NCBI GenBank assembly: GCA_964556685.1
Contig: CAZKWX010000001.1
Coordinates: 11,417-75,416 of the forward strand
Length of the DNA: 64,000 nucleotides
Reading direction: 5' to 3'
From: an uncultured Bdellovibrionales bacterium
Lineage (GTDB): Bacteria > Patescibacteriota > Minisyncoccia > Moranbacterales > DUUL01
Part shown: one piece after another, positions 5,519 to 58,918 of the stretch
How positions within the stretch are numbered: position 1 is the first letter of the stretch
Layout: every line of letters starts with the position of its first letter
Translations under genes and position numbers: made by a program
The notes under the pieces: generated by a model
The model's database searches: none
Seen by the model: only the letters and a program-made list of their open reading frames with translations
What the model was told of the DNA's origin: nothing

Positions 5519-6073
5519 ATGTTGGAAGTTGAAGCTAAAATTAGAGTAAAAGACCTGGAAACCGCTAGAAAGAATCTCAAAAAGCTGGGAGCCAAAAAAG
5601 TGGAAGAAAAAGTCCAAATTGATAAAGTGTATGGGCGAGATTCTGATTTAGACGACGAGCATAAGGTAATTGAAGGAAGATTCAGCGCCAGGATTAGAAA
5701 GACTAACAAAGTCTGCCGGATTGATTTTAAGGAGATTTTGCGAGGCAAACCAGGCGACGAACATAACATTGAACTGAGTGACATTGATGAGGGTGATAAG
5801 TTTTTACAAAAATTGGATTATAAAGAGGCCTTCACATCGGAGAAGAAAAGGGAAATCTATGGATATGAAAGTTTTGAAATTTGCTTGGATGACTTTCCAA
5901 AACTTGGCTATTTCATTGAAGCAGAAAAAAAGATTGAAGAAGGAGAAAGCAAGGAAGATGCGTATAAAAGTTGTGTGGAAGTTTTGAAGAAAATTGATCC
6001 AAGGGGAGAGATTGAAAACAAAAAATATGGGGATTTGATTCAGGAAGTGATTAATGAGAAAGGGAAGTTTTAA
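5519..6073 (+). CDS. CYTH-domain protein (class IV adenylyl cyclase / triphosphate tunnel metalloenzyme-like)
   Basis: N-terminal MLEVEAKIRV carries the ExExK signature of CYTH. Acidic clusters downstream. The tool ORF 5384 start overlaps the atpG tail; the in-frame ATG at 5519 is preferred. Confidence 0.55.
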   Translation: MLEVEAKIRVKDLETARKNLKKLGAKKVEEKVQIDKVYGRDSDLDDEHKVIEGRFSARIRKTNKVCRIDFKEILRGKPGDEHNIELSDIDEGDKFLQKLDYKEAFTSEKKREIYGYESFEICLDDFPKLGYFIEAEKKIEEGESKEDAYKSCVEVLKKIDPRGEIENKKYGDLIQEVINEKGKF

Positions 6074-6718: not shown

Positions 6719-8134
<1,416 letters not shown>

Positions 8135-8139
8135 GAGGT

Positions 8140-8212
8140 AAGATCTAGGATTTAAGAATAAATTCAAATCCCCCACCTCGAGTACGAGGCACCCCCTTTA
8201 CTAAAGGGGGAA
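8140..8212. repeat. Element related to family G (TTCAAATCCC ... CCCCCTTT ACT AAAGGGGG hairpin)
   Basis: Begins GATTTAAGAATAAATTCAAATCCCCC like the 1545 and 9030 copies. Ends in the CCYCTT-N3-AAGRGG hairpin module. Confidence 0.55.
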
Positions 8213-8256
8213 ATAAAGAAATGCTGTAGTGGTACGACATGCTATATTGAAAAATA

Positions 8257-8288
8257 GTATATACCAACGTATATACGAATGTATATAC
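8257..8288. repeat. GTATATAC x3 array (family D)
   Basis: gtatatac-caac-gtatatac-gaat-gtatatac: three copies of the palindromic 8-mer at 12-bp phase. Confidence 0.8.
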
Positions 8289-8307
8289 AAATTAAGCAAG
8301 TATCTTT

Positions 8308-9006
8308 ATGGTATTGCTCGGACTTACAACTTCAAAAAGATCAAATTGGCAGCAGAAAATAAGAGAAGCGTCATATTATAATATTGAAAAAATATCACTT
8401 TTCCCTACGTATTCACGGATATCTGAAAGAAAAAAACTCTACGAAGCGATTGATGGGAGTACCATTGTTGAAATACCTCATGTGCATCTGTGCCATGATA
8501 TAGAATTGTGGGAGCTAGATTATTTTGTTAAAGAATACAATACCCAAATTTTTAACATACACACTGAGAGATTATTTCCGCTGGAGAATGATATTTCAAA
8601 GTATAATTCCAAGATATTCGTTGAAAATGCAGGACTACCCACAGAGAATGAATTAAAGAAATTCGGTGGTTTCTGTATAGATTTTGCACATTGGGAAGAC
8701 TATATAAGATTAGAGGGAGAAAAGTACAATCCAGAAGAGGATAAAATCAGGGACTGGATGAAGAAGTATGATGTTGGTTGTGGTCACGTGTCAGCAATTT
8801 CAGAAGAAATACACGAAGATGAGGGCATTCCAGGAAGAATGTGTTATGCCTCGCATTGGATGAATAGTCTGGATGATATAAAATATATGAAAAAATATGT
8901 CAAGTATGTTTCTAAATATGTTAGTATTGAGTTGGATAATCCTTTCAAGGAACAACTCAAGGTGAAGAAATACTTAGAGAAAATTCTATATAAAAGGATC
9001 AATTGA
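8308..9006 (+). CDS. hypothetical protein, possibly xylose-isomerase-like TIM-barrel (sugar phosphate isomerase/epimerase) fold
   Basis: Conserved H/E/D-containing segments (IFVENAG, CIDFAHWED, CGHV). Inserted between atpD and atpC. Weak assignment. Confidence 0.3.
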   Translation: MVLLGLTTSKRSNWQQKIREASYYNIEKISLFPTYSRISERKKLYEAIDGSTIVEIPHVHLCHDIELWELDYFVKEYNTQIFNIHTERLFPLENDISKYNSKIFVENAGLPTENELKKFGGFCIDFAHWEDYIRLEGEKYNPEEDKIRDWMKKYDVGCGHVSAISEEIHEDEGIPGRMCYASHWMNSLDDIKYMKKYVKYVSKYVSIELDNPFKEQLKVKKYLEKILYKRIN

Positions 9007-9118: not shown

Positions 9119-9214
9119 ATTGGAAAGAAAAGGAATAAATAACTATACAACGTTGCTGTGTCGAGAAATAGTACTTGCCATAGTAAGTACGTCCGAGCAC
9201 GTATTAGAATCATT

Positions 9215-9871
9215 ATGATCAGAAAAAATGTCCCATTTTATGCCAATACGGCAGACAATACACACTGCTTTCAGGCTTCTTTGAAAATGGTAATGAAGTA
9301 TTTTTGGCCAAATAGGAATTATTCATGGAAAAAATTAGATAAAATCACCGCAAAAATTCCTGGACTATGGACCTGGCCAATGGCAGGACTGATCTGGTTA
9401 CAAAAACAAGGAATTGAAATTGCGATGGTTGAAGCTTTTGACTATTCAAGATTCATAAAACTAGGAGGAGAATATTTAATTGAGGAATTTGGGAAAGAAG
9501 TAGGGGAAGCCCAGATCAAACACAGTAATATAGACCAAGAAATAAGATTTGCGAAAGAATTTTTGGAGAGAATTAAAATTGAAAAACGAATTCCCAAATT
9601 AAAAGACATAAAAAGATTTTTAAAGAAAGGTTATGTCATTATATGTAATGTTAATTCTCGCAAATTAGCAAAGAAAGAAGGGTATGTCGGTCATTTTATC
9701 GTTATTTTTAATTTTAATGATAAATATCTTTTTCTTCATAACCCTGGTCTTCCACCCCAAAAAAATCAAAGAGTAAGTTTTAAGCAATTTGAAAAAGCTT
9801 GGGCTTATCCGAATGAAAGAGCAAAAGGAATAATAGCGTTAAGAATTAACATTACTAACCAAGATATTTAA
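9215..9871 (+). CDS. C39-like papain-fold cysteine peptidase domain protein
   Basis: NTHCFQASLKMVMKYFW (Cys motif) and GHFIVIF (His motif) resemble Peptidase_C39-like domains. The tool ORF starts at GTG 9158; the in-frame ATG is at 9215. Confidence 0.4.
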   Translation: MIRKNVPFYANTADNTHCFQASLKMVMKYFWPNRNYSWKKLDKITAKIPGLWTWPMAGLIWLQKQGIEIAMVEAFDYSRFIKLGGEYLIEEFGKEVGEAQIKHSNIDQEIRFAKEFLERIKIEKRIPKLKDIKRFLKKGYVIICNVNSRKLAKKEGYVGHFIVIFNFNDKYLFLHNPGLPPQKNQRVSFKQFEKAWAYPNERAKGIIALRINITNQDI

Positions 9872-19914: not shown

Positions 19915-21060
19915 CTATATTTTCACTGGCAATCTCCAGATAACTTTGGTAGCCAAGAAGAAGTTTAACAGGGTAGCGGCAATGACGCCGATGATGGCAG
20001 CGAGAATATAGTGCAGTCCGATTGAAAGCCCGAAAGAAAAAATTGCAAAGTTGAAGAACATTGTGACAACAGAAAAAACATAATAATAGATCACTCGACG
20101 CATGCTCTCTTTTCGATCGGGTGATTTTTTGTCGCTATAAGTGAATAGGGAATTGAAAGCATAGTTCGTCAGGATTGAAACTGCTACTGCGATGATATAA
20201 GCTGGTCTTTCGACTATATTAAAAATTTCTACTAAAATTGCCAAGAGGCCAAGGTTCACAATCACGCCACTAGCTCCGACAATGCAGAATTTAATGAAAC
20301 GTCCGGCCTCAGGAACGGTGCGGAAAAGATGCCAAAGGTGACTAAAAAATTCCAGGCCTTGCTTGAGGGTAGCTTTACTTTGGTCATTTTCTCGAGGAAG
20401 AAATTTCTGTGGAACCAAAGAAACCTTTTTTGGATTTGTGCGCACAAGCAATTCAACTTGGATTTTGAAGCCTCTTGGTTCAAGTTTAACCCTTTCAAGT
20501 AGTTCTCTTTTAAAAAGAAAAAGTCCGGCCAAAGGATCAGAAGTCTTGCGAGTAGGAATGAAAATAATTTGAGTGAACCATTTCATTCCCAAGGAAACAG
20601 CTCGCCGATAGATTCCATAAGGAGTTTTGAGACTGCCTAGTCCTGTAGCGCTTCCTCCTTTCATATAACGAGAAGCGGAAACGAAGTCAGCATCATCACT
20701 GATGGCTTTTCCCAACATTGTTAGCATTACTTCTGGTGGATGTTGCAAGTCTGTGTCCATAGAACCAATATATTTGCCTTGAGATTTTTCAAAGCCAACA
20801 ATGACGGCTGAAGCCAAACCTTCTTTATTACCATAAATAAGCCTTATTTGAGGGTCTTTTTGAACCTCCCGTTCAATGATTTTTGGCGTTTCATCGTCGC
20901 TATCATCAACAAAAATCATTTCATAGTCATATTTGGTATTTGCAAAAACAGCCGTCAGCTTCTCGATTAGCGGTAATACGTTATCCTTTTCATTGAACGT
21001 GGGCAGCACAATGCTGAGCAGTTTTTGATTCTCCATGTTTATTTTTTGTAGTTGACGCAT
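19915..21060 (-). CDS. polyprenyl-phosphate glycosyltransferase (GT2, Dol-P-Man synthase-like) with C-terminal GtrA-like TM domain
   Basis: LSIVLPTFNE, FVDDSDDET and DTDLQHPPE are GT2 motifs. C-terminal 4-TM GtrA-like tail. Alternative ATG at 21036 (MENQK...). Confidence 0.75.
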   Translation of the reverse strand: MRQLQKINMENQKLLSIVLPTFNEKDNVLPLIEKLTAVFANTKYDYEMIFVDDSDDETPKIIEREVQKDPQIRLIYGNKEGLASAVIVGFEKSQGKYIGSMDTDLQHPPEVMLTMLGKAISDDADFVSASRYMKGGSATGLGSLKTPYGIYRRAVSLGMKWFTQIIFIPTRKTSDPLAGLFLFKRELLERVKLEPRGFKIQVELLVRTNPKKVSLVPQKFLPRENDQSKATLKQGLEFFSHLWHLFRTVPEAGRFIKFCIVGASGVIVNLGLLAILVEIFNIVERPAYIIAVAVSILTNYAFNSLFTYSDKKSPDRKESMRRVIYYYVFSVVTMFFNFAIFSFGLSIGLHYILAAIIGVIAATLLNFFLATKVIWRLPVKI

Positions 21061-21075
21061 ATATGCGTCAACTAC
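21048..21075. promoter_or_regulatory. 28-bp perfect palindrome GTAGTTGACGCATAT|ATGCGTCAACTAC at the 5' end of the GT2 gene
   Basis: Perfect inverted repeat. A sibling copy lies inside the GT-C paralog 4 CDS at 22364. Confidence 0.4.
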
Positions 21076-21104: not shown

Positions 21105-22907
21105 TTATAAAACATCCTTCCAAAAAAGCCTTTCTGTTTTTCCTGACCCTCCTTCTTCATCTGGAGCTAGCTCTTTTTCTTTTTTAGTTGGTAGTTTTTC
21201 TTTTTGGACTTCCAGCTGAAAAACTTCTAACTGTCCAATTTGTTTCGAATCAACTATTTTAGTATAAGGTTGAATTTTTTTGTTGATAGAATTCTTGCCG
21301 CCAGATTTTGTTACTAAAGCAAAAATAGTGTCGACATTTTCCAAGTCACTCGACCCTCCTGCATAGGAATAGTCTATTTCGTTTTGAAGGGAAAGCAAGT
21401 ACTTCGTTGGCAGCATGTATTCTGCTTTAGTGTTATAAATCAATGTCAATCCGGGATTATTTTTGAGCATATACTCAATAGCTTTTTCAAATTGGCCTAA
21501 GGTAACCCCATCTTGGTTTTTGAGAATCAGTGTTCGGTTAGTATCAAAACTTTTTTCTTGAGAAAGTTCGTTTTCCCTGAACCAAGCGCAGGTGCCGAAA
21601 ATATTTAATAATAAGAAAATTGCTGAAATGATAAAAATTAATGGAAGATAATTTTTCACCACTCTTTTTTCTAGTGCCGAAAACCAAAGAGCGATGATGA
21701 TAAATGGGATGGGGAAAACCGGGACAAAATAACGTGGTCTGAGCAGGTACGAAGTAGTAATAGTAACTAAAAAGAACAGTACTATCCAGATAATGAGCAT
21801 GAAAAGAAAGTTTTTATCATTCTGCTTTGATTTAACCTTGTATTCTTTAATGGCCAGATAAATACCAGAAAAAATGAAAAGTAATCCAAACCCAACAGTT
21901 ATGGGGTCAGCTTTGTGGCCTTTTCGGTGACTGAATGAAGTGGTGATCAGTGAATAACCCTTAGCTTGTTCGCGGAAATTTCGAATGATTTTCTTGTGGA
22001 ACTTTTTGTCCTTTGATTTGGCCTCGAAGGCACCAAAAAAGTTTTTAGTGTTTGAAAAATCAGTCTTGAAATCACTAATAATCACTGGGGAATAAATTAT
22101 TCCGAAAATTAAGAGAGTTGTCAAAACATAAAAAAGAGAATTTTTGGAAGAAAGGATGTTTTTAACGTTTCCTGATTGAGGTTTCACCGCGAGTACTCGC
22201 GGTGAAACCTCTCTTGAGCGGTCCCAAATATAATAAACAATGAAAACTACCGAAATTGCAATTAAAGCAAAGGCGGCATAAAAATGAAGTTGCGATGCGA
22301 CAGCAAAGGCAAAGGCCCAAAGAGCAATCCAGCCAATTTTTTTCCAAAGATTCTTATTTTCTTGTAGATGACGCACATGTGCGTCATCTACAGAAGAAAA
22401 ACGCAATAGAGCATAAATTGTCAATAGCATGAAAAACGGCACGGAATTTGGATTCCAGGAGAAACGGGAATACTGAATAATTAAGAAGGAAAAAGAATAA
22501 AGTAATGTGGCTAAAAGAGCTGGCACTGGCTTGAAATAGAGTCGCAAAAATAAATAGAAGAGTGGAATGACTAGAATCGAAAACAGCAAGTCTGGATAGG
22601 CAAAAACGTCAGGGGACGAAGATTTAAAAATCGCACCAGAGGTCCATTGCATGTAATAGTAGGCTGGTCCTAATCGCAAGAAATCTGTGCCACCAGTTTC
22701 AGTTGAGACTTTCGTAGCCCTTGGTCCCAATAGCGGCAAGTTTTCTGCTCCATTTTCAATGGCTGGTTTCAAAAGGGAAGCATCTCGTGCCTGGTCCCAC
22801 TTAAAAAACAGCCAATCATGATGTTGATAGGTTCGAACCCAAATTGCTCCGGCGATGATCAGAACAAGAGCAACGCCAACCCAGATTTTTGTTTTGTTGT
22901 TATTCAT
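21105..22907 (-). CDS. GT-C family membrane glycosyltransferase, paralog 4
   Basis: MNNNKTKIW...VRTYQHHDWLFFKWDQARD. Same architecture as paralogs 2 and 3. Confidence 0.6.
   Translation of the reverse strand: MNNNKTKIWVGVALVLIIAGAIWVRTYQHHDWLFFKWDQARDASLLKPAIENGAENLPLLGPRATKVSTETGGTDFLRLGPAYYYMQWTSGAIFKSSSPDVFAYPDLLFSILVIPLFYLFLRLYFKPVPALLATLLYSFSFLIIQYSRFSWNPNSVPFFMLLTIYALLRFSSVDDAHVRHLQENKNLWKKIGWIALWAFAFAVASQLHFYAAFALIAISVVFIVYYIWDRSREVSPRVLAVKPQSGNVKNILSSKNSLFYVLTTLLIFGIIYSPVIISDFKTDFSNTKNFFGAFEAKSKDKKFHKKIIRNFREQAKGYSLITTSFSHRKGHKADPITVGFGLLFIFSGIYLAIKEYKVKSKQNDKNFLFMLIIWIVLFFLVTITTSYLLRPRYFVPVFPIPFIIIALWFSALEKRVVKNYLPLIFIISAIFLLLNIFGTCAWFRENELSQEKSFDTNRTLILKNQDGVTLGQFEKAIEYMLKNNPGLTLIYNTKAEYMLPTKYLLSLQNEIDYSYAGGSSDLENVDTIFALVTKSGGKNSINKKIQPYTKIVDSKQIGQLEVFQLEVQKEKLPTKKEKELAPDEEGGSGKTERLFWKDVL
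22364..22391. repeat. 28-bp palindrome GTAGATGACGCACATGTGCGTCATCTAC embedded in-frame in the GT-C paralog 4 CDS
   Basis: Near-copy of the 21048 palindrome. Encodes an extra ...DDAHVRHLQ... segment absent from paralogs 2 and 3 at the aligned position. Confidence 0.5.
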
Positions 22908-23094: not shown

Positions 23095-23103
23095 TTTTTT
23101 GCT

Positions 23104-23125
23104 CCACCTGAGATATCTCAGGTGG
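23104..23125. promoter_or_regulatory. 22-bp perfect palindrome CCACCTGAGAT|ATCTCAGGTGG overlapping the RBS of the AbrB-like gene
   Basis: The left arm CCACC is the complement of the GGTGG Shine-Dalgarno of the minus-strand gene starting at 23094. Confidence 0.4.
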
Positions 23126-23162
23126 AAAATATTTTAATGCCTAAGAATGCCTTATTTTGGGG

Positions 23163-28024: not shown

Positions 28025-29200
28025 TTATAGGCTCTCATAAACTTCAGCATACTCCTTAGCTGTTTTTTTTATGTCAAAATTTTCCTGGGCAAATTTTCTA
28101 GCATTAGAGCCGATTCGGTCTAGTGTGACTGGGTTGTTTTTTAAATATTCAATTGTCTTAGCCAAAGTTTCAGGATCGGCTTTGGGAACGATAACCCCAT
28201 TTTCTCCATCCCTGACGAACTCTTTTAAAACAGGCAGATCTGAAATAACAACAGCTCTTCCACAAGCCATCGGTTCAACGATAGCATAGGGAATGTCAAA
28301 TTTTCCTTCCATTTTACGCGCTGGGAAAATATTTAAATCAGTCGTATTAAAAAGTCTGGCAATGTCATTAAAATAGTCCAAAAACACCACCTGCTTATCA
28401 TAGCCCGATTTCTTCAGTCTTTCAATCACTGCCTCTTTCTTCTTTTTATCTTCAGGAGATTTTATTCGTACAGTCATAATCAGCTTATATTTCAAATCTT
28501 TTTTCCAAAGAATTTCCATCGCATCAATCACATCATCAACTGTTTTTTCATTCATCTTGGTGTATTCTCCAGTATACTGGAGAAGGAAATCTTCAGAAGA
28601 AAATCCCAATTCTTGAATCAGCTGCTCGTCTTTTGCTGTAGGGGAATATTCTTCTAAATCAATCCCGGGGTATATTGTAGCGGTATTCTCAATGCCTACC
28701 TTATTCAGTTTTTCTTCGGTGTGATTGGATTGAGTGATAACTTTATCAGTGAAGAAAACTTTTCTCAGTTTTTTATTATTCCCACATGTAGAGTTGAGAC
28801 ATTGCCTCGACTCTACGGATGGCAAGGCAGCTACGGTTTGGATGGTTTTGGCCTTAGAAAATGACAAACGTAGTTTTATCATGAATGAAGTCAAAGAGCG
28901 AGGAGTGAAAAGGAAGTGAATAGCGTCTGCGTTCAGCTTGAAGCGATAAAGTCTCATGAGCAATCTCAGCTTTGACCAAGCGCCGAATTTGGTGGAACTA
29001 TAAATTGGTTCTGGTTTTGCTTCGGCCAAATAGCCTTCCTTTTTCTCTTCTTTCTTTTTAATCTCCTTAGCAAACTCTTGGGTGGTCAACACTTCAAACT
29101 CAAAATCACCCTCAACATTTTGAGATAATTCATAGGCTAAATTTTTCGATGCCTCATCCCAGGGTGGAGCCAATGGGCGAGTGTAGAGGAGAATTTTCAA
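28025..29200 (-). CDS. glycosyltransferase family 1 (GT4-like)
   Basis: C-terminal EGKFDIPYAIVEPMACGRAVVISDLPVLKEFV...GENG is the GT1 E-x7-E type motif. Apparent TTG start. Confidence 0.8.
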   Translation of the reverse strand: MKILLYTRPLAPPWDEASKNLAYELSQNVEGDFEFEVLTTQEFAKEIKKKEEKKEGYLAEAKPEPIYSSTKFGAWSKLRLLMRLYRFKLNADAIHFLFTPRSLTSFMIKLRLSFSKAKTIQTVAALPSVESRQCLNSTCGNNKKLRKVFFTDKVITQSNHTEEKLNKVGIENTATIYPGIDLEEYSPTAKDEQLIQELGFSSEDFLLQYTGEYTKMNEKTVDDVIDAMEILWKKDLKYKLIMTVRIKSPEDKKKKEAVIERLKKSGYDKQVVFLDYFNDIARLFNTTDLNIFPARKMEGKFDIPYAIVEPMACGRAVVISDLPVLKEFVRDGENGVIVPKADPETLAKTIEYLKNNPVTLDRIGSNARKFAQENFDIKKTAKEYAEVYESL

Positions 29201-36338: not shown

Positions 36339-36370
36339 GTATATACGAACGTATATACGTTGGTATATAC
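36339..36370. repeat. GTATATAC x3 array (family D)
   Basis: gtatatac-gaac-gtatatac-gttg-gtatatac. Preceded by the perfect palindrome CTCCATAGAG-AA-CTCTATGGAG. Confidence 0.8.
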
Positions 36371-37933: not shown

Positions 37934-39610
37934 ATGAATATTATATCAAGACTAAAAAGTCCGGTAGCATATTTGACACAACTTCACAATTCTTGCCATA
38001 TATTTCAATTCATGGTAGTATCTATAATTGATACATTAGACTTAACCATTTTTGTGAAGTCAGTTCGATTTATACGTGAAGTTATAGAAAACTCACTCAT
38101 CACAATAATTATGGGAGCAGTGGCCTTTGCGCTGATTCTGGTGACCACTTTGAATTTCACCGCCGCTACTCTTGTTTTTGTGCTTTTTATATTTCTGGCC
38201 ATACTCCAGCACAGTTTTTCACGAGGATGGCTATTTTTGTTAGTTATTGCTCTTTTGTTGCCATCGATTGGAATTGGTACCAGCTATTTCGCAATTCATG
38301 AAATTTTTCTGACCATCCTGGCCGTGATTGGTCTCATTTCCATCGGGATTGAGAATAAAAAAATTCCCATTAACAAGATTTCTTACTATTTCTTTTTACT
38401 CATCATTATCGGTGGTAGCATCATCGTTTTTGGCAGCGCTTTTGAACAAGTAATCGATCCCAGTGTCTGGATTCTGATAGTGACATTGGCCTTGATCTGG
38501 GCGTTGCTAATTGCTTTTCAATACTTTTTTCAAACTCAAAAAAGATTGCAAAGGTTTTTCTTGGCGTTAATCACTGTAGGTGTGTTGCATTCAGCTTTTG
38601 GTATTTTGGCCTACATATTTGACTGGCAGACATCATTGGGAATGGGAATTTCAAGTGGGAAATTCGAACATCTGATTTTTGCCGATGCCTCCATTCGAGT
38701 GAATGGATTTCTGGGAGACGGTTTTGTGATGAGAGTGGGGGACAGTGCCTTGGCACCACTCTTACTGATCACCATTCCTGTCGCCATTGGATTGTTGCTG
38801 AGTTTTCAGAAAGAAAAAAAATCTCCCGCGAAGAAAACATTCGACACGAAACGGGACAGACTTTTTGATTCAATTCACCTCGCCAGAACGAAGGAAGAAC
38901 TTCGAAGAAAAATCGTAGTCATTTCCCAGAAAACCAATGTTAAAGATCTTCAAAAAGAGTTGCCCATGATTTTTAACAAAAAGACTCTCATTATTGGTTT
39001 CATCTTGCTTCAAGCGGTGGCCTTAATCCTGACGTTTTCCTATAGTGCCTTGGTGATATTGACGATCGGACTCTTTGCTATTGGACTATTGTTACGCAAC
39101 AAGTCCCTGCTTTCCATCGCTGCTTCAATATTAATTGTTTTGTCCATTGCATTTCCAGGTTTTCGATCTTCGTTAATCAATGAATCAACTGCCAATTTGA
39201 CTCAATGGTTTTCTGGTTTTGAGCAAGTAAGTAAATCATGGGCTTTTGGAAATGGCTGGAGAGTTGAACTGCAAGAAGGAGAGTCGTCCGGTATTAGCGC
39301 AGAGCACATCTACAACTCCTATCTTTACATCTGGAATATTTTAGGCCTGGCCGGGCTGTTGGTTTTTCTGGCAATGTTAGTCCAATATTTTATTGAAATT
39401 AGAAATGCCTACATTAGATCTGATGGATGGCAGAGAATTTGGCTGATTGTTATTTTGGCAGTCTTTATTGAGTTTGCTTTGTTGGGTCTAACTAACAATG
39501 CATTGCTTTTTGGTCCCGCGGCACTAATTTTCTGGCTACTCTATGGAGCCATTCAAAATCTCAAAAAGAGAAAAGTTGAGTTTGGCCTGACTGAAACCAA
39601 AATTTTTTAG
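37934..39610 (+). CDS. O-antigen ligase/polymerase-like (Wzy_C domain) membrane protein
   Basis: Polytopic. C-terminal AEHIYNSYLYIWNILGLAGL matches the H-x2-N-x-Y-L O-antigen ligase motif. A large internal loop is present. Confidence 0.5.
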   Translation: MNIISRLKSPVAYLTQLHNSCHIFQFMVVSIIDTLDLTIFVKSVRFIREVIENSLITIIMGAVAFALILVTTLNFTAATLVFVLFIFLAILQHSFSRGWLFLLVIALLLPSIGIGTSYFAIHEIFLTILAVIGLISIGIENKKIPINKISYYFFLLIIIGGSIIVFGSAFEQVIDPSVWILIVTLALIWALLIAFQYFFQTQKRLQRFFLALITVGVLHSAFGILAYIFDWQTSLGMGISSGKFEHLIFADASIRVNGFLGDGFVMRVGDSALAPLLLITIPVAIGLLLSFQKEKKSPAKKTFDTKRDRLFDSIHLARTKEELRRKIVVISQKTNVKDLQKELPMIFNKKTLIIGFILLQAVALILTFSYSALVILTIGLFAIGLLLRNKSLLSIAASILIVLSIAFPGFRSSLINESTANLTQWFSGFEQVSKSWAFGNGWRVELQEGESSGISAEHIYNSYLYIWNILGLAGLLVFLAMLVQYFIEIRNAYIRSDGWQRIWLIVILAVFIEFALLGLTNNALLFGPAALIFWLLYGAIQNLKKRKVEFGLTETKIF

Positions 39611-39640
39611 CCAATCAGTCAATCAAAATATTCAAGTCCT

Positions 39641-39666
39641 ACTCTCATATATGCATATATGAGAGT
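39641..39666. promoter_or_regulatory. 26-bp perfect palindrome ACTCTCATATATG|CATATATGAGAGT (family E)
   Basis: Identical copies at 50291 and 50801. A half copy at 47289. Confidence 0.7.
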
Positions 39667-39887
39667 AAAAGTTTTTGTGGTTGTGATGATTTTCAAAACC
39701 CAGAACTTGACCCATTACTCGGTTTTGGGAGCTTGTAACGCGGACCGATGCTGATATAAAGAAACTTAGTTTTCAGGGAAACTAAGTTTCTTGCGGCGTA
39801 CCCTGAGAGAGGAGATAGCTAATACTAGCAAAGTCTTTACAAAAAGGCTTTTTTTGGTTATGCTTGTTAAGTTCTAATTCGTTATAT

Positions 39888-41255
39888 ATGCCAAAGAAAT
39901 ATTCGAAAAAATTTTGGATCAGTTTTTGGCTTATCTCAGCTGTTTTTTTGCTGGGGTGGTTTGTCTTTTTGCAATACAAAAGTAAAGGATATTTGGGATT
40001 GATTTCCTTTTTTAGACCAGCAGCAAAAATTCTTCCCATAGATCAAAAACAAAAGGAGGAATTGGGTGTGGTTTTTGATATCATAGATAAACTGGCTGAC
40101 AGCGAAGAAAAGACTTTTTTAATCTTATTTCAAAACAATAACGAGTTGAGACCAGGCGGTGGCTACATTGGATCGTTTGGAATTCTGAAGATTAAAGACA
40201 AGAAAATAACCTTCGTTGATTCTCATGACACCAATATTTTTGATGATCGAGCGTCCACTGAGATTGAACCACCCTTTCCGATGAAAAAAATGTTACGCAT
40301 TCCAGATTGGGAATTGCGAGACAGCAACTGGTCACCAGACTTTCCAACTAACGCAAAAAAGGCCGAGGAATTCTTTCACCTAGAAGGCGGCCAGGAGCAA
40401 TTTGATGGAGTGATCGCCATTTCCACTGCTCTCCTGCCTTCTTTTTTGGAAATCACCGGGCCAGTCAGTGTCGAAGGATATCCGGGGGAATATAACAGTG
40501 AAAATGCTATTACCAAACTTCAATATCAGGTGGAAAGGGGATATAAGGATCAAGATATTGAAAAAGGAAAACGAAAATATATTATGAAGGATCTTTCGAA
40601 AAAGATCATGGATCGAACTCAGGCGATGAGTTTTTTGGACAAGAAGAAACTAGCCGAAAGAGTGGAGCAGCATTTGGACGAGAAAGATATTTTAATCTAT
40701 TTTAAAGACGAGGAATTGCAAGAAAAGATTCGAACTTTAGGTTGGAGCGGAGAAGTTCAAGATTCAGAAAGCGACTATCTCATGATTGTGGATGCCAATA
40801 TGGGTTCGCTCAAGTCTGATGCAGTGATCGATCGTTCTGTTGAATACACGGTTGATTTTCAAGAAGATATGCCCAAAGCGACTTTGAAAATAACTTATCA
40901 ACACAATGGCAAAAGCCGGGACTGGAAAACCAAAGACTATGACACCTACACTCGGGTTTATGTGCCCAAAGAGAGTTGGCTTCACAATGCTACTGGAGTA
41001 GGCAAAACTCGCTTTGGAGAAGAGCTGGACAAAAAGTATTTTGGATTTTTGCATCAGGTGAAACTGGGTGAGACTAAAACCGTGGTGGTCAACTATGATT
41101 TGCCTGAAAATATTACTGAGGAAAATTACAGCTTGCTTGTTCAAAAACAAGCCGGCTTGAAAAATCTGCCGCTTAAGAGTATTATTATAAAAAAAGGAGG
41201 AGAAAGAGTTGAAAAAAACATTATCATAAAAAATTCCGAAGCTATAGGAGGTTAA
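39888..41255 (+). CDS. DUF4012-domain protein
   Basis: N-terminal TM helix, then the ELRPGGGYIGSFG motif characteristic of DUF4012. The tool ORF starts at 39864; the ATG at 39888 is preferred. Confidence 0.5.
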   Translation: MPKKYSKKFWISFWLISAVFLLGWFVFLQYKSKGYLGLISFFRPAAKILPIDQKQKEELGVVFDIIDKLADSEEKTFLILFQNNNELRPGGGYIGSFGILKIKDKKITFVDSHDTNIFDDRASTEIEPPFPMKKMLRIPDWELRDSNWSPDFPTNAKKAEEFFHLEGGQEQFDGVIAISTALLPSFLEITGPVSVEGYPGEYNSENAITKLQYQVERGYKDQDIEKGKRKYIMKDLSKKIMDRTQAMSFLDKKKLAERVEQHLDEKDILIYFKDEELQEKIRTLGWSGEVQDSESDYLMIVDANMGSLKSDAVIDRSVEYTVDFQEDMPKATLKITYQHNGKSRDWKTKDYDTYTRVYVPKESWLHNATGVGKTRFGEELDKKYFGFLHQVKLGETKTVVVNYDLPENITEENYSLLVQKQAGLKNLPLKSIIIKKGGERVEKNIIIKNSEAIGG

Positions 41256-47140: not shown

Positions 47141-47284
47141 TCCCTCCCCTTCGAAAGGGGATGTTGAATTCATTAGTTTTGAATTCAAAGGGGTTCGTCA
47201 GAATGTCAGGAGTCGCCAGCCATTTTGACTAACTCCCCGAGCAAAACTCATCCGCTTTGCTCCACTCTTATCAAGAGGGGGAAG
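47141..47284. repeat. Family A composite repeat (full copy with upstream hairpin modules)
   Basis: CCCTCCCCTTCGAAAGGGGATG, TGAATTCATTAGTTTTGAATTCA, GGGGTTCGTCAGAATGTCAGGAGTCGCC ... CTCTTATCAAGAGGGGGAA. Confidence 0.75.
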
Positions 47285-47288
47285 GTCG

Positions 47289-47306
47289 TATGCATATATG
47301 AGAGTA
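47289..47306. repeat. half copy of family E palindrome (TATGCATATATGAGAGTA)
   Basis: Right arm only, directly abutting the family A copy. Confidence 0.5.
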
Positions 47307-47345: not shown

Positions 47346-48380
47346 ATGGAAACAAGAAAAATTGACATTTCAAGCGGTGTCATTTGGAGAATTATATTGA
47401 TCGCTCTCCTGCTTTGGTTTTTATTTTTCATCCGAGACATTCTGCTATTATTGATTTTAGCTATAGTTGTTGTCAGCGCCGCACTTCCTCTGGTGGACAA
47501 AATGGAATCAAAGAAAATACCCCGCGCATTAGGAACACTAGGAATTTTCTTGGGTTTTATTTTGGTGGTGGCTTTTATTTTCTACTTAATTTTGCCTCAA
47601 TTAGTCGACGAATTTAAACAATTGGGACAAACCTTACCGAAATATTTCGAAGGAATAAATCGTTTTTTTGAAAATGCTTCACAACTGGCAATAACCTATA
47701 ATTTCAGCAACCTGCAAGATATAATTGACAGAAGTTCGGAAGCTCTGGCTAGTTCTGCTTCGAGTTTCTTCTCTAGTACGGTAGGATTTCTTGGAGGGTT
47801 CCTGAAGATTATCATAATTTTTTCACTTTCTTTCTATATGTTGGTGAAGAGGAATGGTACTCAGAATTTTATCAAGCAAGTTACTCCAGCTAAGCATCAA
47901 GAATATGTGACAGATTTAATCAATCGAATTCAAAGAAAGATGGGTCGTTGGTTGGTAGGGCAGATCGCTCTCATTTTCATTGTCTTTGGGTTGTACTATT
48001 TAGCCTTGACTTTACTGGGTGTTCCATTTGCTCTGGCCTTGGCAATTTTCGGAGGATTGCTGGAAATTATTCCATACTTGGGTCCAATCATAGCGGCTAT
48101 TCCAGCGATATTACTGGCTTTCACTGTCTCTCCCCTGACAGCGCTGCTGGTTGCCGCAGCCTATTTTTTGATTCAACAGATGGAAAATCATCTCTTCACG
48201 CCATTGATTATGAGGAAAGCCGTTGGTCTTAATCCGGTTATAGTTATTTTAGCTCTTTTGGTAGGAGCAAAAATAGCCGGAATTTTAGGGGTAATTCTAG
48301 CAGTTCCCGTGACTACAGCAATTGGAGTTTTCATTAAAGACTTAATGGAGAAAAAAGAAGCAGCAGAAGCTGATGCGTAA
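47346..48380 (+). CDS. AI-2E family transporter (PerM/UPF0118)
   Basis: 8-TM topology. Typical AI-2E organisation. 344 aa. Confidence 0.7.
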   Translation: METRKIDISSGVIWRIILIALLLWFLFFIRDILLLLILAIVVVSAALPLVDKMESKKIPRALGTLGIFLGFILVVAFIFYLILPQLVDEFKQLGQTLPKYFEGINRFFENASQLAITYNFSNLQDIIDRSSEALASSASSFFSSTVGFLGGFLKIIIIFSLSFYMLVKRNGTQNFIKQVTPAKHQEYVTDLINRIQRKMGRWLVGQIALIFIVFGLYYLALTLLGVPFALALAIFGGLLEIIPYLGPIIAAIPAILLAFTVSPLTALLVAAAYFLIQQMENHLFTPLIMRKAVGLNPVIVILALLVGAKIAGILGVILAVPVTTAIGVFIKDLMEKKEAAEADA

Positions 48381-50224: not shown

Positions 50225-50290
50225 TGGAGGAGAAAACTCATTGTCTATCTAATTGCTCTTTGCTCCACAGTTTCTTGATTTAGCACACAT

Positions 50291-50316
50291 ACTCTCATAT
50301 ATGCATATATGAGAGT
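50291..50316. promoter_or_regulatory. 26-bp perfect palindrome (family E), ~55 nt upstream of the TrpR-like gene
   Basis: ACTCTCATATATGCATATATGAGAGT. Candidate operator or attenuator. Confidence 0.7.
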
Positions 50317-50370
50317 GGATGATAGAATTGTAATGCAAGGTATTTCTTATAAAATTTCTTATAAAAAAAT

Positions 50371-50787
50371 ATGGCAAAAAGAAGAGTATACGAAGTAGAT
50401 CAAAAAGAACGATATCGGATGTTGAATGATTTTTTTGAAATGGTTGCTGGAATAAAAACAAAAAAGGAGGCCGCAAACTTTTTCAAGGACATGCTAACCC
50501 CAAGCGAATCGCTGATGATTACTCGTAGAATTGAAATTGCCAAGATGTTAATCACGGGACATACTTTTGATGAAATAAAAGACATTCTTAAAGTTGGCAC
50601 TAACACAGTCAATAGTGTCAACCGTTGGTTGTTTACAGGCTTTGGTGGATATTTAAATGAAATAAAGAAAAGTAATAATAAAAGTAGTCTGAAAAATAGT
50701 ATGCCAAAAAGTGAGTGGGATAGTATAAAGAAAAAATACCCAGCCCACTTTATGATTTTTAATCTAGTCGATAAATTTAAAAAATAA
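50371..50787 (+). CDS. TrpR-related YerC/YecD-family DNA-binding protein
   Basis: LNDFFEMV...EAANFFKDMLTPSESLMITRRIEIAKMLITGHTFDEIKDILKVGTNTVNSVNRWL matches the YerC/YecD (Trp-repressor-like) fold pattern. Confidence 0.6.
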   Translation: MAKRRVYEVDQKERYRMLNDFFEMVAGIKTKKEAANFFKDMLTPSESLMITRRIEIAKMLITGHTFDEIKDILKVGTNTVNSVNRWLFTGFGGYLNEIKKSNNKSSLKNSMPKSEWDSIKKKYPAHFMIFNLVDKFKK

Positions 50788-50800
50788 CAATAAACATTTT

Positions 50801-50826
50801 ACTCTCATATATGCATATATGAGAGT
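50801..50826. promoter_or_regulatory. 26-bp perfect palindrome (family E), between the TrpR-like stop and the gltX start
   Basis: 13 nt after the stop at 50787 and ~27 nt before the gltX ATG. Confidence 0.7.
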
Positions 50827-50853
50827 AAAACAGAAGGAGAGTTTTGAATTTAG

Positions 50854-52374
50854 ATGGATAAAAAAAATAGTAAGAAAAAAAAGGATAAGAAAAAAGGGGG
50901 AGAGATTCGAACGCGTTTTGCGCCATCTCCCACTGGGTTTGTTCACGTGGGAAATTTGCGCACTGTTTTGTATAGTTATTTGATGGCTAAAAAAAATAAA
51001 GGCAGTTTTTTGTTGCGAGTGGAAGACACTGATCAAGATAGACGAGTGGAAGGCGCCATGGAAAAAATGCTTGAAAGTTTGCGCTGGGTTGGCATTGAGC
51101 CTGATGAAGGCGTACTTTTGGATAAAGATGGCAAAGTTCAACAAAAAGGTGAGCATGGGCCTTACATTCAATCAGAGAGGCTCAAAATCTACCAGGAGCA
51201 CGTTCTCGGGCTTCTTTCGAAAGGAAAGGTCTATCACTGCTTTTGCACGGAGAATCGTTTGAAAGAGCTGCGAGAAGAGCAACAAAAGAACAAGCAAGCA
51301 CCCAAATATGACGGGTTTTGCCGCAATTTATCAAAGGAAGAGAAAGATGAAAAAATAAAAAATGGAAAAGATTACGTAATAAGGTTAAAAGTTCCCAAAA
51401 ACGAAACCATAGAATTCAAGGATGAAGTCTTCGGAAAAATAAAAATAGATTCAAACACGATTGATGACCAAGTGCTTTTGAAATCAGATGGTTTTCCGAC
51501 TTATCATTTAGCGGTGGTTGTCGATGACCATTTGATGGACATCACTCATATTACTCGAGGTGAAGACTGGCTGCCCAGCACACCAAAACATGTATTATTA
51601 TACCAAGCATTTGGCTGGGAAATTCCGACAATAATTCATTTACCAAATGTTTTGGGACAAAACGGAAAGAAACTTTCCAAGAGGGAAGGGGATGTTGGCG
51701 TTGAAGACTTTCGAAGAAAGGGCTATCTTCCGGAAGCACTGATTAACTTTCTGGCGCTGCTTGGCTGGAATCCAAAGACTGAGCAAGAACACTTCTCCTT
51801 GAATGAGTTGGTGAAAAAATTTGATGTTAACGGTTTGCATAAGGCCGGAGCAGTGTTTGATTATAAAAAACTAGATTGGATGAATAGCCATTACATCAAG
51901 CAAAAAGATGATGCTGCGCTGTTTGGATTATGTCGACCATATCTAAAAAAATATTTAGAGGAAAATAAATTTTCTGCTGCTGATGAATTACTTCAAAAAA
52001 TAGTTACAATCGAAAAAGAGAGAATTAAAAAACTTTCGGAGATCATTGATGACATTAATTATTATTTTACTGAGCCAAAATATGAAAAAGAAATGCTTTG
52101 GTGGAAAAAAATGACTGACGAGGAGCTTGAAAAATCTCTGAAACAATCGCTTGAAGTGCTTAAGAAGTTAAAAGAAAAAGATTACACCATTGAAAAACTC
52201 CAAGAAAAACTATTTGAGGCGGCTGGTGATAAGAAAGGCGAGCTTCTTTGGCCGCTACGAGTTGCTTTGACTGGAGAAGAGAAAAGTCCCAGTCCATTTG
52301 AAGTGGCTTGGATTTTAGGGAAAGAAAAAGCAACAAAAAGAGTGAAAAACGCGCTAAAACTTGTGCAAAAATAA
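50854..52374 (+). CDS. gltX: glutamyl-tRNA synthetase
   Basis: HIGH-type motif PSPTGFVHVGNLRT. KLSKR (KMSKS-type). N-terminal Lys-rich extension. Confidence 0.9.
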   Translation: MDKKNSKKKKDKKKGGEIRTRFAPSPTGFVHVGNLRTVLYSYLMAKKNKGSFLLRVEDTDQDRRVEGAMEKMLESLRWVGIEPDEGVLLDKDGKVQQKGEHGPYIQSERLKIYQEHVLGLLSKGKVYHCFCTENRLKELREEQQKNKQAPKYDGFCRNLSKEEKDEKIKNGKDYVIRLKVPKNETIEFKDEVFGKIKIDSNTIDDQVLLKSDGFPTYHLAVVVDDHLMDITHITRGEDWLPSTPKHVLLYQAFGWEIPTIIHLPNVLGQNGKKLSKREGDVGVEDFRRKGYLPEALINFLALLGWNPKTEQEHFSLNELVKKFDVNGLHKAGAVFDYKKLDWMNSHYIKQKDDAALFGLCRPYLKKYLEENKFSAADELLQKIVTIEKERIKKLSEIIDDINYYFTEPKYEKEMLWWKKMTDEELEKSLKQSLEVLKKLKEKDYTIEKLQEKLFEAAGDKKGELLWPLRVALTGEEKSPSPFEVAWILGKEKATKRVKNALKLVQK

Positions 52375-58010: not shown

Positions 58011-58042
58011 GTATATACAGTCGTATATACGTGGGTATATAC
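58011..58042. repeat. GTATATAC x3 array (family D)
   Basis: gtatatac-agtc-gtatatac-gtgg-gtatatac. Lies 10 nt downstream of the stop of the HAD gene on the other strand. Confidence 0.8.
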
Positions 58043-58684: not shown

Positions 58685-58716
58685 GTATATACGAACGTAT
58701 ATACGTGGATATATAT
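58685..58716. repeat. GTATATAC array (two perfect copies plus a degenerate ATATATAT)
   Basis: gtatatac-gaac-gtatatac-gtgg-atatatat. Lies 18 nt upstream of the HAD start. Confidence 0.75.
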
Positions 58717-58898: not shown

Positions 58899-58918
58899 GA
58901 ATATACGAACGTATATAC
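58899..58918. repeat. GTATATAC array (two copies)
   Basis: gaatatac-gaac-gtatatac. Confidence 0.65.

Follow-up and report, generated by a model that had tools for sequence, protein, structure and literature searches.

The tryptophan repressor TrpR of E. coli has the operator GTACTAGTTAACTAGTAC, and we know of no operator downstream of trpR in that system. In phage lambda, the tripartite operators OR and OL flank the cI-rex operon with a spacing of 2.4 kb, and the octamerization of CI has been demonstrated. In REP/RAYT systems, the gene of a Y1 (HUH) transposase is flanked by its own palindromes, which are present in hundreds of copies and form BIME-like clusters. YerC of B. subtilis is HisR, a repressor of the TrpR family whose operator is palindromic (PMC9413887). 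HisR operators are 20-bp palindromes (cacTTTA-N6-TAAAgtg) predicted in about 490 genomes, with binding validated in vitro for Ruminococcus gnavus, and a site upstream of hisR itself was predicted in 183 genomes, pointing to autoregulation (PMC9413887). Patescibacteria are not mentioned in that study, and our search for literature on the TrpR/YerC family in Patescibacteria found nothing. In these bacteria (Candidate Phyla Radiation), genomes are tiny and transcription factors few, and hardly any regulation has been defined by experiment.

Here we describe a 26-bp palindrome in a stretch of 64,000 nucleotides of DNA, hereafter the window. From sequence comparison we consider, with moderate confidence, that the regulator of the TrpR/YerC(HisR) family encoded next to the palindrome has it as its cognate operator, with a site on either side of the gene. 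Such a two-sided layout of operators, found here down to 36% protein identity, would be an architecture unreported for TrpR/HisR proteins.

Copies of the palindrome in the window

The sequence ACTCTCATATATGCATATATGAGAGT, a perfect palindrome of 26 nt, occurs exactly at 39641-39666, 50291-50316 and 50801-50826 (0 copies expected). At up to three mismatches the window holds no further copy, and 100 dinucleotide-preserving shuffles gave 0 matches, so the claim of the sequence-only reading that three identical 26-mers exceed chance stands. Two of the copies bracket a yerC-like gene (Table 1). The downstream one starts 13 nt past the yerC TAA (50785-50787) and ends 27 nt short of the gltX ATG (50854); these two distances, and that between the upstream copy and the yerC ATG, were given correctly in the sequence-only reading.

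The third copy lies 30 nt past the stop of a gene at 37934-39610 and ~220 nt ahead of a DUF4012 gene with a probable start at 39890. The label "Wzy-like" that had been attached to the former gene was not confirmed; no Pfam family matched it even at E<=1. The long untranslated stretch from the third copy to the DUF4012 gene contains, at 39759-39792, a perfect stem of 14 bp that closes a 6-nt loop (AAGAAACTTAGTTT-tcaggg-AAACTAAGTTTCTT) and has no U-tract. With DUF4012 and an extensive rml/glycan cluster, the window looks like DNA of Patescibacteria, and its homologues carry the names Moranbacteria or Patescibacteria.

The right-arm half copy described earlier at 47289 is real. This truncated copy lies 40 nt 5' of the ATG of an AI-2E transporter gene (47346-48380) and may represent either a half-site or the decayed remains of a full one. 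An 11-mer, CTTTGCTCCAC, is present at 50258-50268 and 47255-47265, 5' of the 50291 palindrome and of the truncated copy at slightly different distances, and may be the remnant of a longer unit common to both places.

Table 1 Features of the palindrome-bracketed locus and of the other copies, in window coordinates
Feature	Position	Strand	Basis and remarks
Third exact copy, 28-bp palindrome	39640..39667	.	exact match
Truncated copy, 17/26 nt (right arm and centre)	47289..47305	.	TATGCATATATGAGAGT, identical to positions 10-26 of the 26-mer
Upstream palindrome copy	50291..50316	.	exact match; end 54 nt 5' of the yerC-like ATG (50371)
Predicted extended -10 element TGaTAGAAT	50320..50328	+	sequence reading; begins 4 nt past the palindrome
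yerC-like gene, 138-aa TrpR/YerC(HisR)-family helix-turn-helix protein	50371..50787	+	PF01371, TIGR02531
Downstream palindrome copy	50797..50830	.	34-bp perfect palindrome TTTT...AAAA enclosing the 26-mer 50801-50826
gltX (glutamyl-tRNA synthetase)	50854..52374	+	Pfam

The bracketed gene and its product

The yerC-like protein scores 52.2 bits against PF01371 (cut-off 27) and 45.8 against TIGR02531 (cut-off 42.2). Its score against the TrpR equivalog TIGR01321 is 21.9, below the cut-off of 67.25, which sets the protein apart from TrpR itself. An AlphaFold2 model of the monomer has an all-helical TrpR-like fold with pLDDT >90 over residues ~11-90. Foldseek placed the YerC-like structures 3kor, 3frw and 3g1c first and E. 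coli TrpR next, with target-normalised TM-scores of 0.75-0.87; the identity to E. coli TrpR is ~19% (Foldseek). A C-terminal extension of ~40 aa (EW..IKKKYPAHF.IFN) is conserved in the homologue alignment, and residues 100-138, modelled at low confidence, are additional to the solved YerC/TrpR structures. Relatives of the protein form 235 clusters at 50% identity (E<=1e-10), many of them with the extension. No second yerC paralogue was found in all the DNA examined (the window and the related loci).

With E. coli TrpR the system has in common the fold (Foldseek 1tro, 1trr), and also, on our reading, an autoregulated gene, a palindromic operator and a dimeric helix-turn-helix repressor. The TrpR operator is unrelated in sequence to the 26-bp palindrome; tandem binding of TrpR (title of entry 1trr) could account for the longer site. 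An origin of the gene as a phage repressor was considered and dropped, since viral contigs hold neither yerC relatives nor a copy of the palindrome core. The leader of the yerC-like gene is A-rich and carries no recognisable Shine-Dalgarno sequence in most lineages (50336-50370 in the window; also L007, L012 and L017-L020).

Conservation of the bracket across lineages

We compared the DNA around yerC homologues of 73% to 36% identity from uncultured Patescibacteria (L007, L010, L012, L013-15, L016-L023 and L025). Two similar palindromes of ~26 bp bracket the yerC-like gene in 13 of 13 lineages, and this constant two-sided layout argues for a cognate operator. In 12 lineages the distance from the end of the upstream core to the ATG is 10-90 nt. 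The upstream copy of the remaining one, L010, is split: an IS4-like element cuts the palindrome exactly at its centre (arms at 7310-7322 and 8652-8664). The DDE_Tnp_1 gene of this element occupies 7461-8633, its terminal repeats are CAAATCAC.../CAATTCAC..., and the yerC region of the same lineage lies between two IS256-like transposase genes. The genes next to yerC include Maf/gltX, rmlB/rmlD, HtrA-like, MazE-like/lipase, Dus, GcpE, alaS, aspS-like and others, depending on the lineage, and no gene other than yerC is consistently conserved across the lineages. Since almost every lineage has other genes at the flanks, the palindromes go with yerC and not with gltX.

The inner 20 nt of the palindrome were also searched against genome and metagenome contig collections, neither of which includes the window's genome. 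This core was found at only nine loci, and at five of them the full 26-mer, including the outer ACT/AGT that was not part of the query, is present: L001, L002 (the same as L009), L003 and L007. The matches in L004-L006 and L008 have no outer ACT/AGT, look like chance or unrelated sequence and were set aside. In L007 the full 26-mer lies 10 nt 5' of a yerC homologue of 72% identity, and a variant (ACTTTC...GAAAGT) lies just past its stop. With L022, the exact 26-mer is thus kept in L001, L002, L003, L007 and L022, where the known yerC proteins are about 70-72% identical. Exact conservation of 26 nt at this level of protein divergence favours sequence-specific recognition over a generic stem. 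A shared regulon member was sought in the HD-domain genes that adjoin sites in L003 and in L020 and was rejected, as the two genes are not homologous.

The resemblance to HisR comprises the family (PF01371/TIGR02531), a palindromic site 5' of the regulator's own gene and a lineage-specific operator consensus. The 20-bp HisR consensus cacTTTAnnnnnnTAAAgtg is not matched by the sites described here, which are 26-28 bp long and read yACTnyCATAtwtG-CawaTATGrnAGTr; a loose resemblance lies in cACTTT at the outer edge of some copies, 4 bp out of register in each half-site. Unlike in HisR, a second site is always present at the 3' end of the gene, and the protein has the conserved C-terminal extension of ~40 aa. 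No histidine biosynthesis or transport genes lie beside any site in the window and ~235 kb of related loci. Given the longer, different operator and the absence of histidine genes, the regulator would work in the manner of HisR/TrpR autoregulation and would not belong to the HisR regulon.

In L025 the two palindromes share an identical left flank of ~20 nt (aaaaacaaataaattaattt), forming a direct repeat of ~52 nt around yerC (8676-8725 and 9188-9237), which suggests a recent duplication, gene conversion or a longer functional module.

Palindrome sequence and the recognition helix

The sequence of the palindrome is specific to the lineage, and in most lineages the upstream and downstream copies are identical or nearly so. 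The type ACTCTCATATATG is found in the window, L022 and L007, ACTTTC in L012, ACTATCATATAAG in L013 and L016, ACTTCAATAATTG in L010 and L017, ACTTCGATATTTC in L025, GTTCTCATGTTTG in L018, GTTATCATGCATT in L020 and ACATCGATACACT in L019; L021 and L023 have distinct further types. The geometry is constant: over 34 sites, the half-sites keep T3 (32/34), A7 (31/34) and T8 (34/34), at 6-11 bp from the dyad.

Half-site positions 4-6 vary with residues 77 and 82 of the protein, the counterparts in the alignment of TrpR positions 79 and 84, which contact DNA. Residue 82 (the equivalent of TrpR Arg84) pairs with half-site positions 5-6 as Ser-TC in eight lineages, Tyr-CA in two and Gly-CG in two. When the tree is built with these helix residues masked, the two lineages with Gly do not group as sisters; the correlation between helix and site is nevertheless partly confounded by phylogeny, with 13 lineages sampled. 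In a prospective check, L022 was picked because it has the window's helix GTNTVNS, and its upstream site proved to be the exact 26-mer of the window, with a mirrored one-pair variant as the downstream copy. The system supplies a widespread regulator subfamily (the 235 clusters), a testable DNA motif and a visible code that relates residues 77/82 to half-site positions 4-6. The motif offers a handle for DAP-seq and EMSA and for the interpretation of metatranscriptomes.

The upstream copy and the predicted promoter

The predicted extended -10 element begins just past the upstream palindrome (Table 1) and implies a transcription start near 50335, which would place the palindrome at about -45 to -19, where repressors classically bind. 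The prediction is based on comparison across the window, L022 and L018: an extended -10 lies at a like offset past the upstream copy in L022 (TGcTATAAT, +4..+12) and L018 (TGtTATTCT, +5..+13). A consensus sigma-70 scan gave no -35/-10 pair on the palindrome and listed TTGTAA-16-TAAAAT at 50328-50355 instead. A (GAAAAA)n tract lies directly 5' of the yerC operator in L022 (1455-1500).

Because the upstream copy abuts the predicted promoter, autorepression is implied, and we propose this copy as the autoregulatory operator of the yerC-like gene. From the linkage, co-variation and site positions observed, we infer binding and the following sign and mode of regulation. A presumed dimer, similar to that of TrpR, would read the half-site core T-N3-A-T at 6-11 bp on either side of the dyad. 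With the upstream copy over about -45 to -19, binding would shut off the gene's own transcription (negative autoregulation). An operator pair for a Trp-repressor-like protein, one of the options in the sequence-only reading, thus finds strong comparative support in the 13/13 brackets, the co-variation with the helix and the position of the upstream copy beside an extended -10.

The downstream copy

That reading had the pair serve both autoregulation and control of gltX. The identity of gltX is borne out by Pfam and the autoregulatory part of the proposal is favoured; control of gltX is genome-specific at best, because the downstream gene varies. The gene 3' of yerC is seldom the same from one lineage to another, and in L018 and L019 it is convergent; the downstream copy lies 3-63 nt past the yerC stop in 13/13 lineages, whatever gene comes next. 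It tracks the stop codon of yerC, not the start of the following gene. In the window, the sequence between the 50801 palindrome and the gltX ATG contains an AAGGAG ribosome-binding site and no -10-like hexamer. Promoter elements are absent after the downstream copies, and in L018 and L019 the copy falls between convergent genes, which argues against a conventional promoter operator at this place. In this genome alone, gltX probably shares a transcript with the downstream palindrome or is gated through it.

The downstream copy would delimit the gene at its 3' end; the likeliest mechanism would be a roadblock of bound protein that controls read-through (here into gltX). Alternatively or additionally, it could pair with the upstream site in a loop of ~0.5 kb. 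The bracketing of a repressor gene by copies of its own operator resembles lambda CI and supplies the looping model for the two-sided layout; unlike CI, the protein has a different fold and the locus no phage context, and bridging is here a model by analogy. The two sites are 461-599 bp apart, centre to centre, and no pattern of helical phasing was found. The few further copies, such as that at 39641, would put other intergenic positions under the same protein.

Four of the 13 lineages have an aminoacyl-tRNA synthetase gene no more than two genes away from yerC (p of only about 0.02 as a rough estimate): gltX at 50854 in the window, a class II synthetase at 9460 in L025, alaS at 8052 in L021 and cysS at 2246 in L018. 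These neighbours may hint at an amino-acid-related effector.

Extended palindromy and the RNA hairpin alternative

Self-complementarity runs past the conserved core into flanks that are specific to each site, for a mean of 2.4 bp compared with 0.74 bp after permutation (p<5e-5). Pairing in the flanks falls outward from 82 to 65, 53, 53, 35 and 38%, and where two copies of the same genome differ, the changes are in most cases mirrored (p~0.03). Self-complementarity thus appears to be kept beyond the needs of a protein site, which hints at selected hairpin or cruciform formation, or at template-switch "perfection" of quasi-palindromes. A dimer that reads its half-sites independently does not predict extended palindromy or mirrored changes, and these observations weigh against the operator reading; the exactness of all three copies in the window, which is unusual for a regulon, also counts against a simple operator. 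The extended palindromy also raises the question of whether the regulatory sites of reduced genomes such as these are moulded by DNA hairpins or cruciforms, or by template-switch mutagenesis.

The same observations bear on the possibility that the palindromes act in RNA, as terminators, attenuators or stabilizers of mRNA ends that the neighbouring regulator does not bind. Such a role would account for stems that lengthen with site-specific flanks and for mirrored changes; nearly all sites come after the stop codon of a co-directional gene, and the predicted RNA hairpin at 50801 is stable (-17.8 kcal/mol, z = -6.0). The copy at 39641 is the only one that passes a loose terminator scan (+ strand, tail AAAGTTTTTG). 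The stems at 50291 and 50801, however, contain only three G-C pairs and are followed on the + strand by ggatgat and aaaacag, with no U-tract on the sense strand. Mismatched pairs at the stem ends show no strand bias (G-U to A-C ~6 to 4 on the sense strand), an Rfam 15 search of the whole window gave nothing at the gathering threshold, and a tRNA/tmRNA scan of it found no genes. Moreover, a generic hairpin leaves the exact conservation of 26 nt across species and the 13/13 tie to one gene unexplained.

The arrangement in L022 is informative on this point. Three palindromes of the ACTTCAAT class lie there 35-100 nt 3' of canonical intrinsic terminators, G+C-rich and U-tailed, and one lies 44 nt 5' of a TGcTATAAT promoter. 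Canonical terminators upstream of related palindromes at this one locus argue that the palindromes are DNA sites and not terminators themselves, and since they lie past the terminators, the sites are probably in untranscribed DNA between transcription units. We therefore regard an action at the RNA level as quite improbable, and the hairpin terminator or attenuator offered as a second option in the sequence-only reading is not upheld. A terminator-like element of ~50 nt (GACCAGCCAA..CACGAACTTTGCGGAGTT.GTGTTTTTT) occurs twice in this 2.5-kb contig, at 694-745 and 2286-2337.

A possible boundary function between transcription units

Extended palindromy would also fit a sequence-specific boundary factor on long hairpin- or cruciform-prone palindromes between transcription units and at either end of its own gene, in place of a metabolite-responsive promoter repressor. 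Such an architectural or insulator protein would block read-through or bridge sites via its C-terminal extension, which is conserved and missing from the solved YerC/TrpR structures. The downstream copies that hug the yerC stop (3-63 nt), two of them between convergent genes (L018 and L019), agree with a boundary function, as do the L022 sites between terminators and promoters and the palindromes that separate each successive gene pair in L010, L017 and L022. Against it, the upstream copies overlap predicted promoters in the fashion of ordinary operators, the spacing of the two sites shows no helical phasing, and the TrpR/HisR relatives are classical repressors (PMC9413887). A purely architectural role appears unlikely to us, and the two-sided operator remains our preferred reading.

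A wider proposal is that the bracket represents an ancient, self-contained module of Patescibacteria, in which a TrpR-fold protein with a clade-specific extension would serve as insulator, roadblock or DNA bridge at the ends of its own gene and in a few tens of gaps between transcription units, and not as a classical promoter repressor that senses a metabolite, with several specificity classes per genome. We put this forward as speculation, more doubtful than probable by a good measure.

Copy number, palindrome classes and the selfish-element alternative

Outside the brackets, about eight sites were found in the ~235 kb sampled, or ~1 per 30 kb, and a scan of one whole GTDB genome with the exact core gave a single occurrence. 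In the sequence sampled, the abundance of sites appears regulon-sized and not REP-sized. More than one class can be present in a genome: L022 has D-type sites at 314, 945 and 2430 (that at 945 is identical to the L010 site) beside T-type sites at 1525 and 2076, and L018 has V-type and T-type sites together, with the foreign T-type site at 5586. No cognate gene for these foreign classes (D-type in L022, T-type in L018) was found in the sequence examined; the mixture of classes in one genome suggests paralogous regulators.

Mixed and lineage-specific classes could also arise if the palindromes were dispersed or homogenized repeats of a REP-like or cassette-like selfish element, with the helix-turn-helix gene as its associated gene in the manner of RAYT. 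The likeness to REP/RAYT is seen in a gene flanked by cognate palindromes (13/13), in class-specific co-evolution and in intergenic placement after stop codons. The change of genomic context around yerC in almost every lineage, the additional ~20 nt of flank shared by the L025 copies in their 52-nt direct repeat and the insertion sequence exactly in the centre of the L010 palindrome are further observations in favour of such an element. Unlike RAYT, the only domain found in the protein is PF01371: it consists of a TrpR fold and a short helical tail, with no Y1/HUH or Tyr domain and no DDE catalytic domain. Judged from the ~235 kb sampled, the sites would number tens, not hundreds, and they form no BIME-like clusters; viral contigs hold neither relatives nor copies. 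A cassette with target-site duplications is unsupported, since inspection found none flanking the palindrome-yerC-palindrome unit. On this evidence a selfish element is a very improbable explanation.

Other palindromes in the window

The window contains 17 perfect hairpins or palindromes with stems of at least 10 bp, compared with 0.8 in shuffled sequence, and some of them lie inside genes, which fits a process that acts genome-wide. Such stems are found at 21048-21075, 22178-22211, 22363-22392, 23103-23126 and 28565-28584. An ORF for a PMT-like glycosyltransferase (21105-22907) has perfect zero-loop palindromes of 30-34 bp inside it, and two palindromes of the window are related to each other (GTAGTTGACGCATA... 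at 21048 and TGTAGATGACGCACA... at 22363).

A second motif is built from two or three copies of an 8-bp palindrome, GTATATAC, with a period of 12 bp (GTATATAC-N4-GTATATAC). These arrays account for nine overlapping matches where 0.01 are expected. They lie at 8257-8288, 36339-36370, 58011-58042, 58685-58716 and 58899-58918, most of the placed ones in intergenic DNA, and the motif probably serves a further DNA-binding protein as an operator array.
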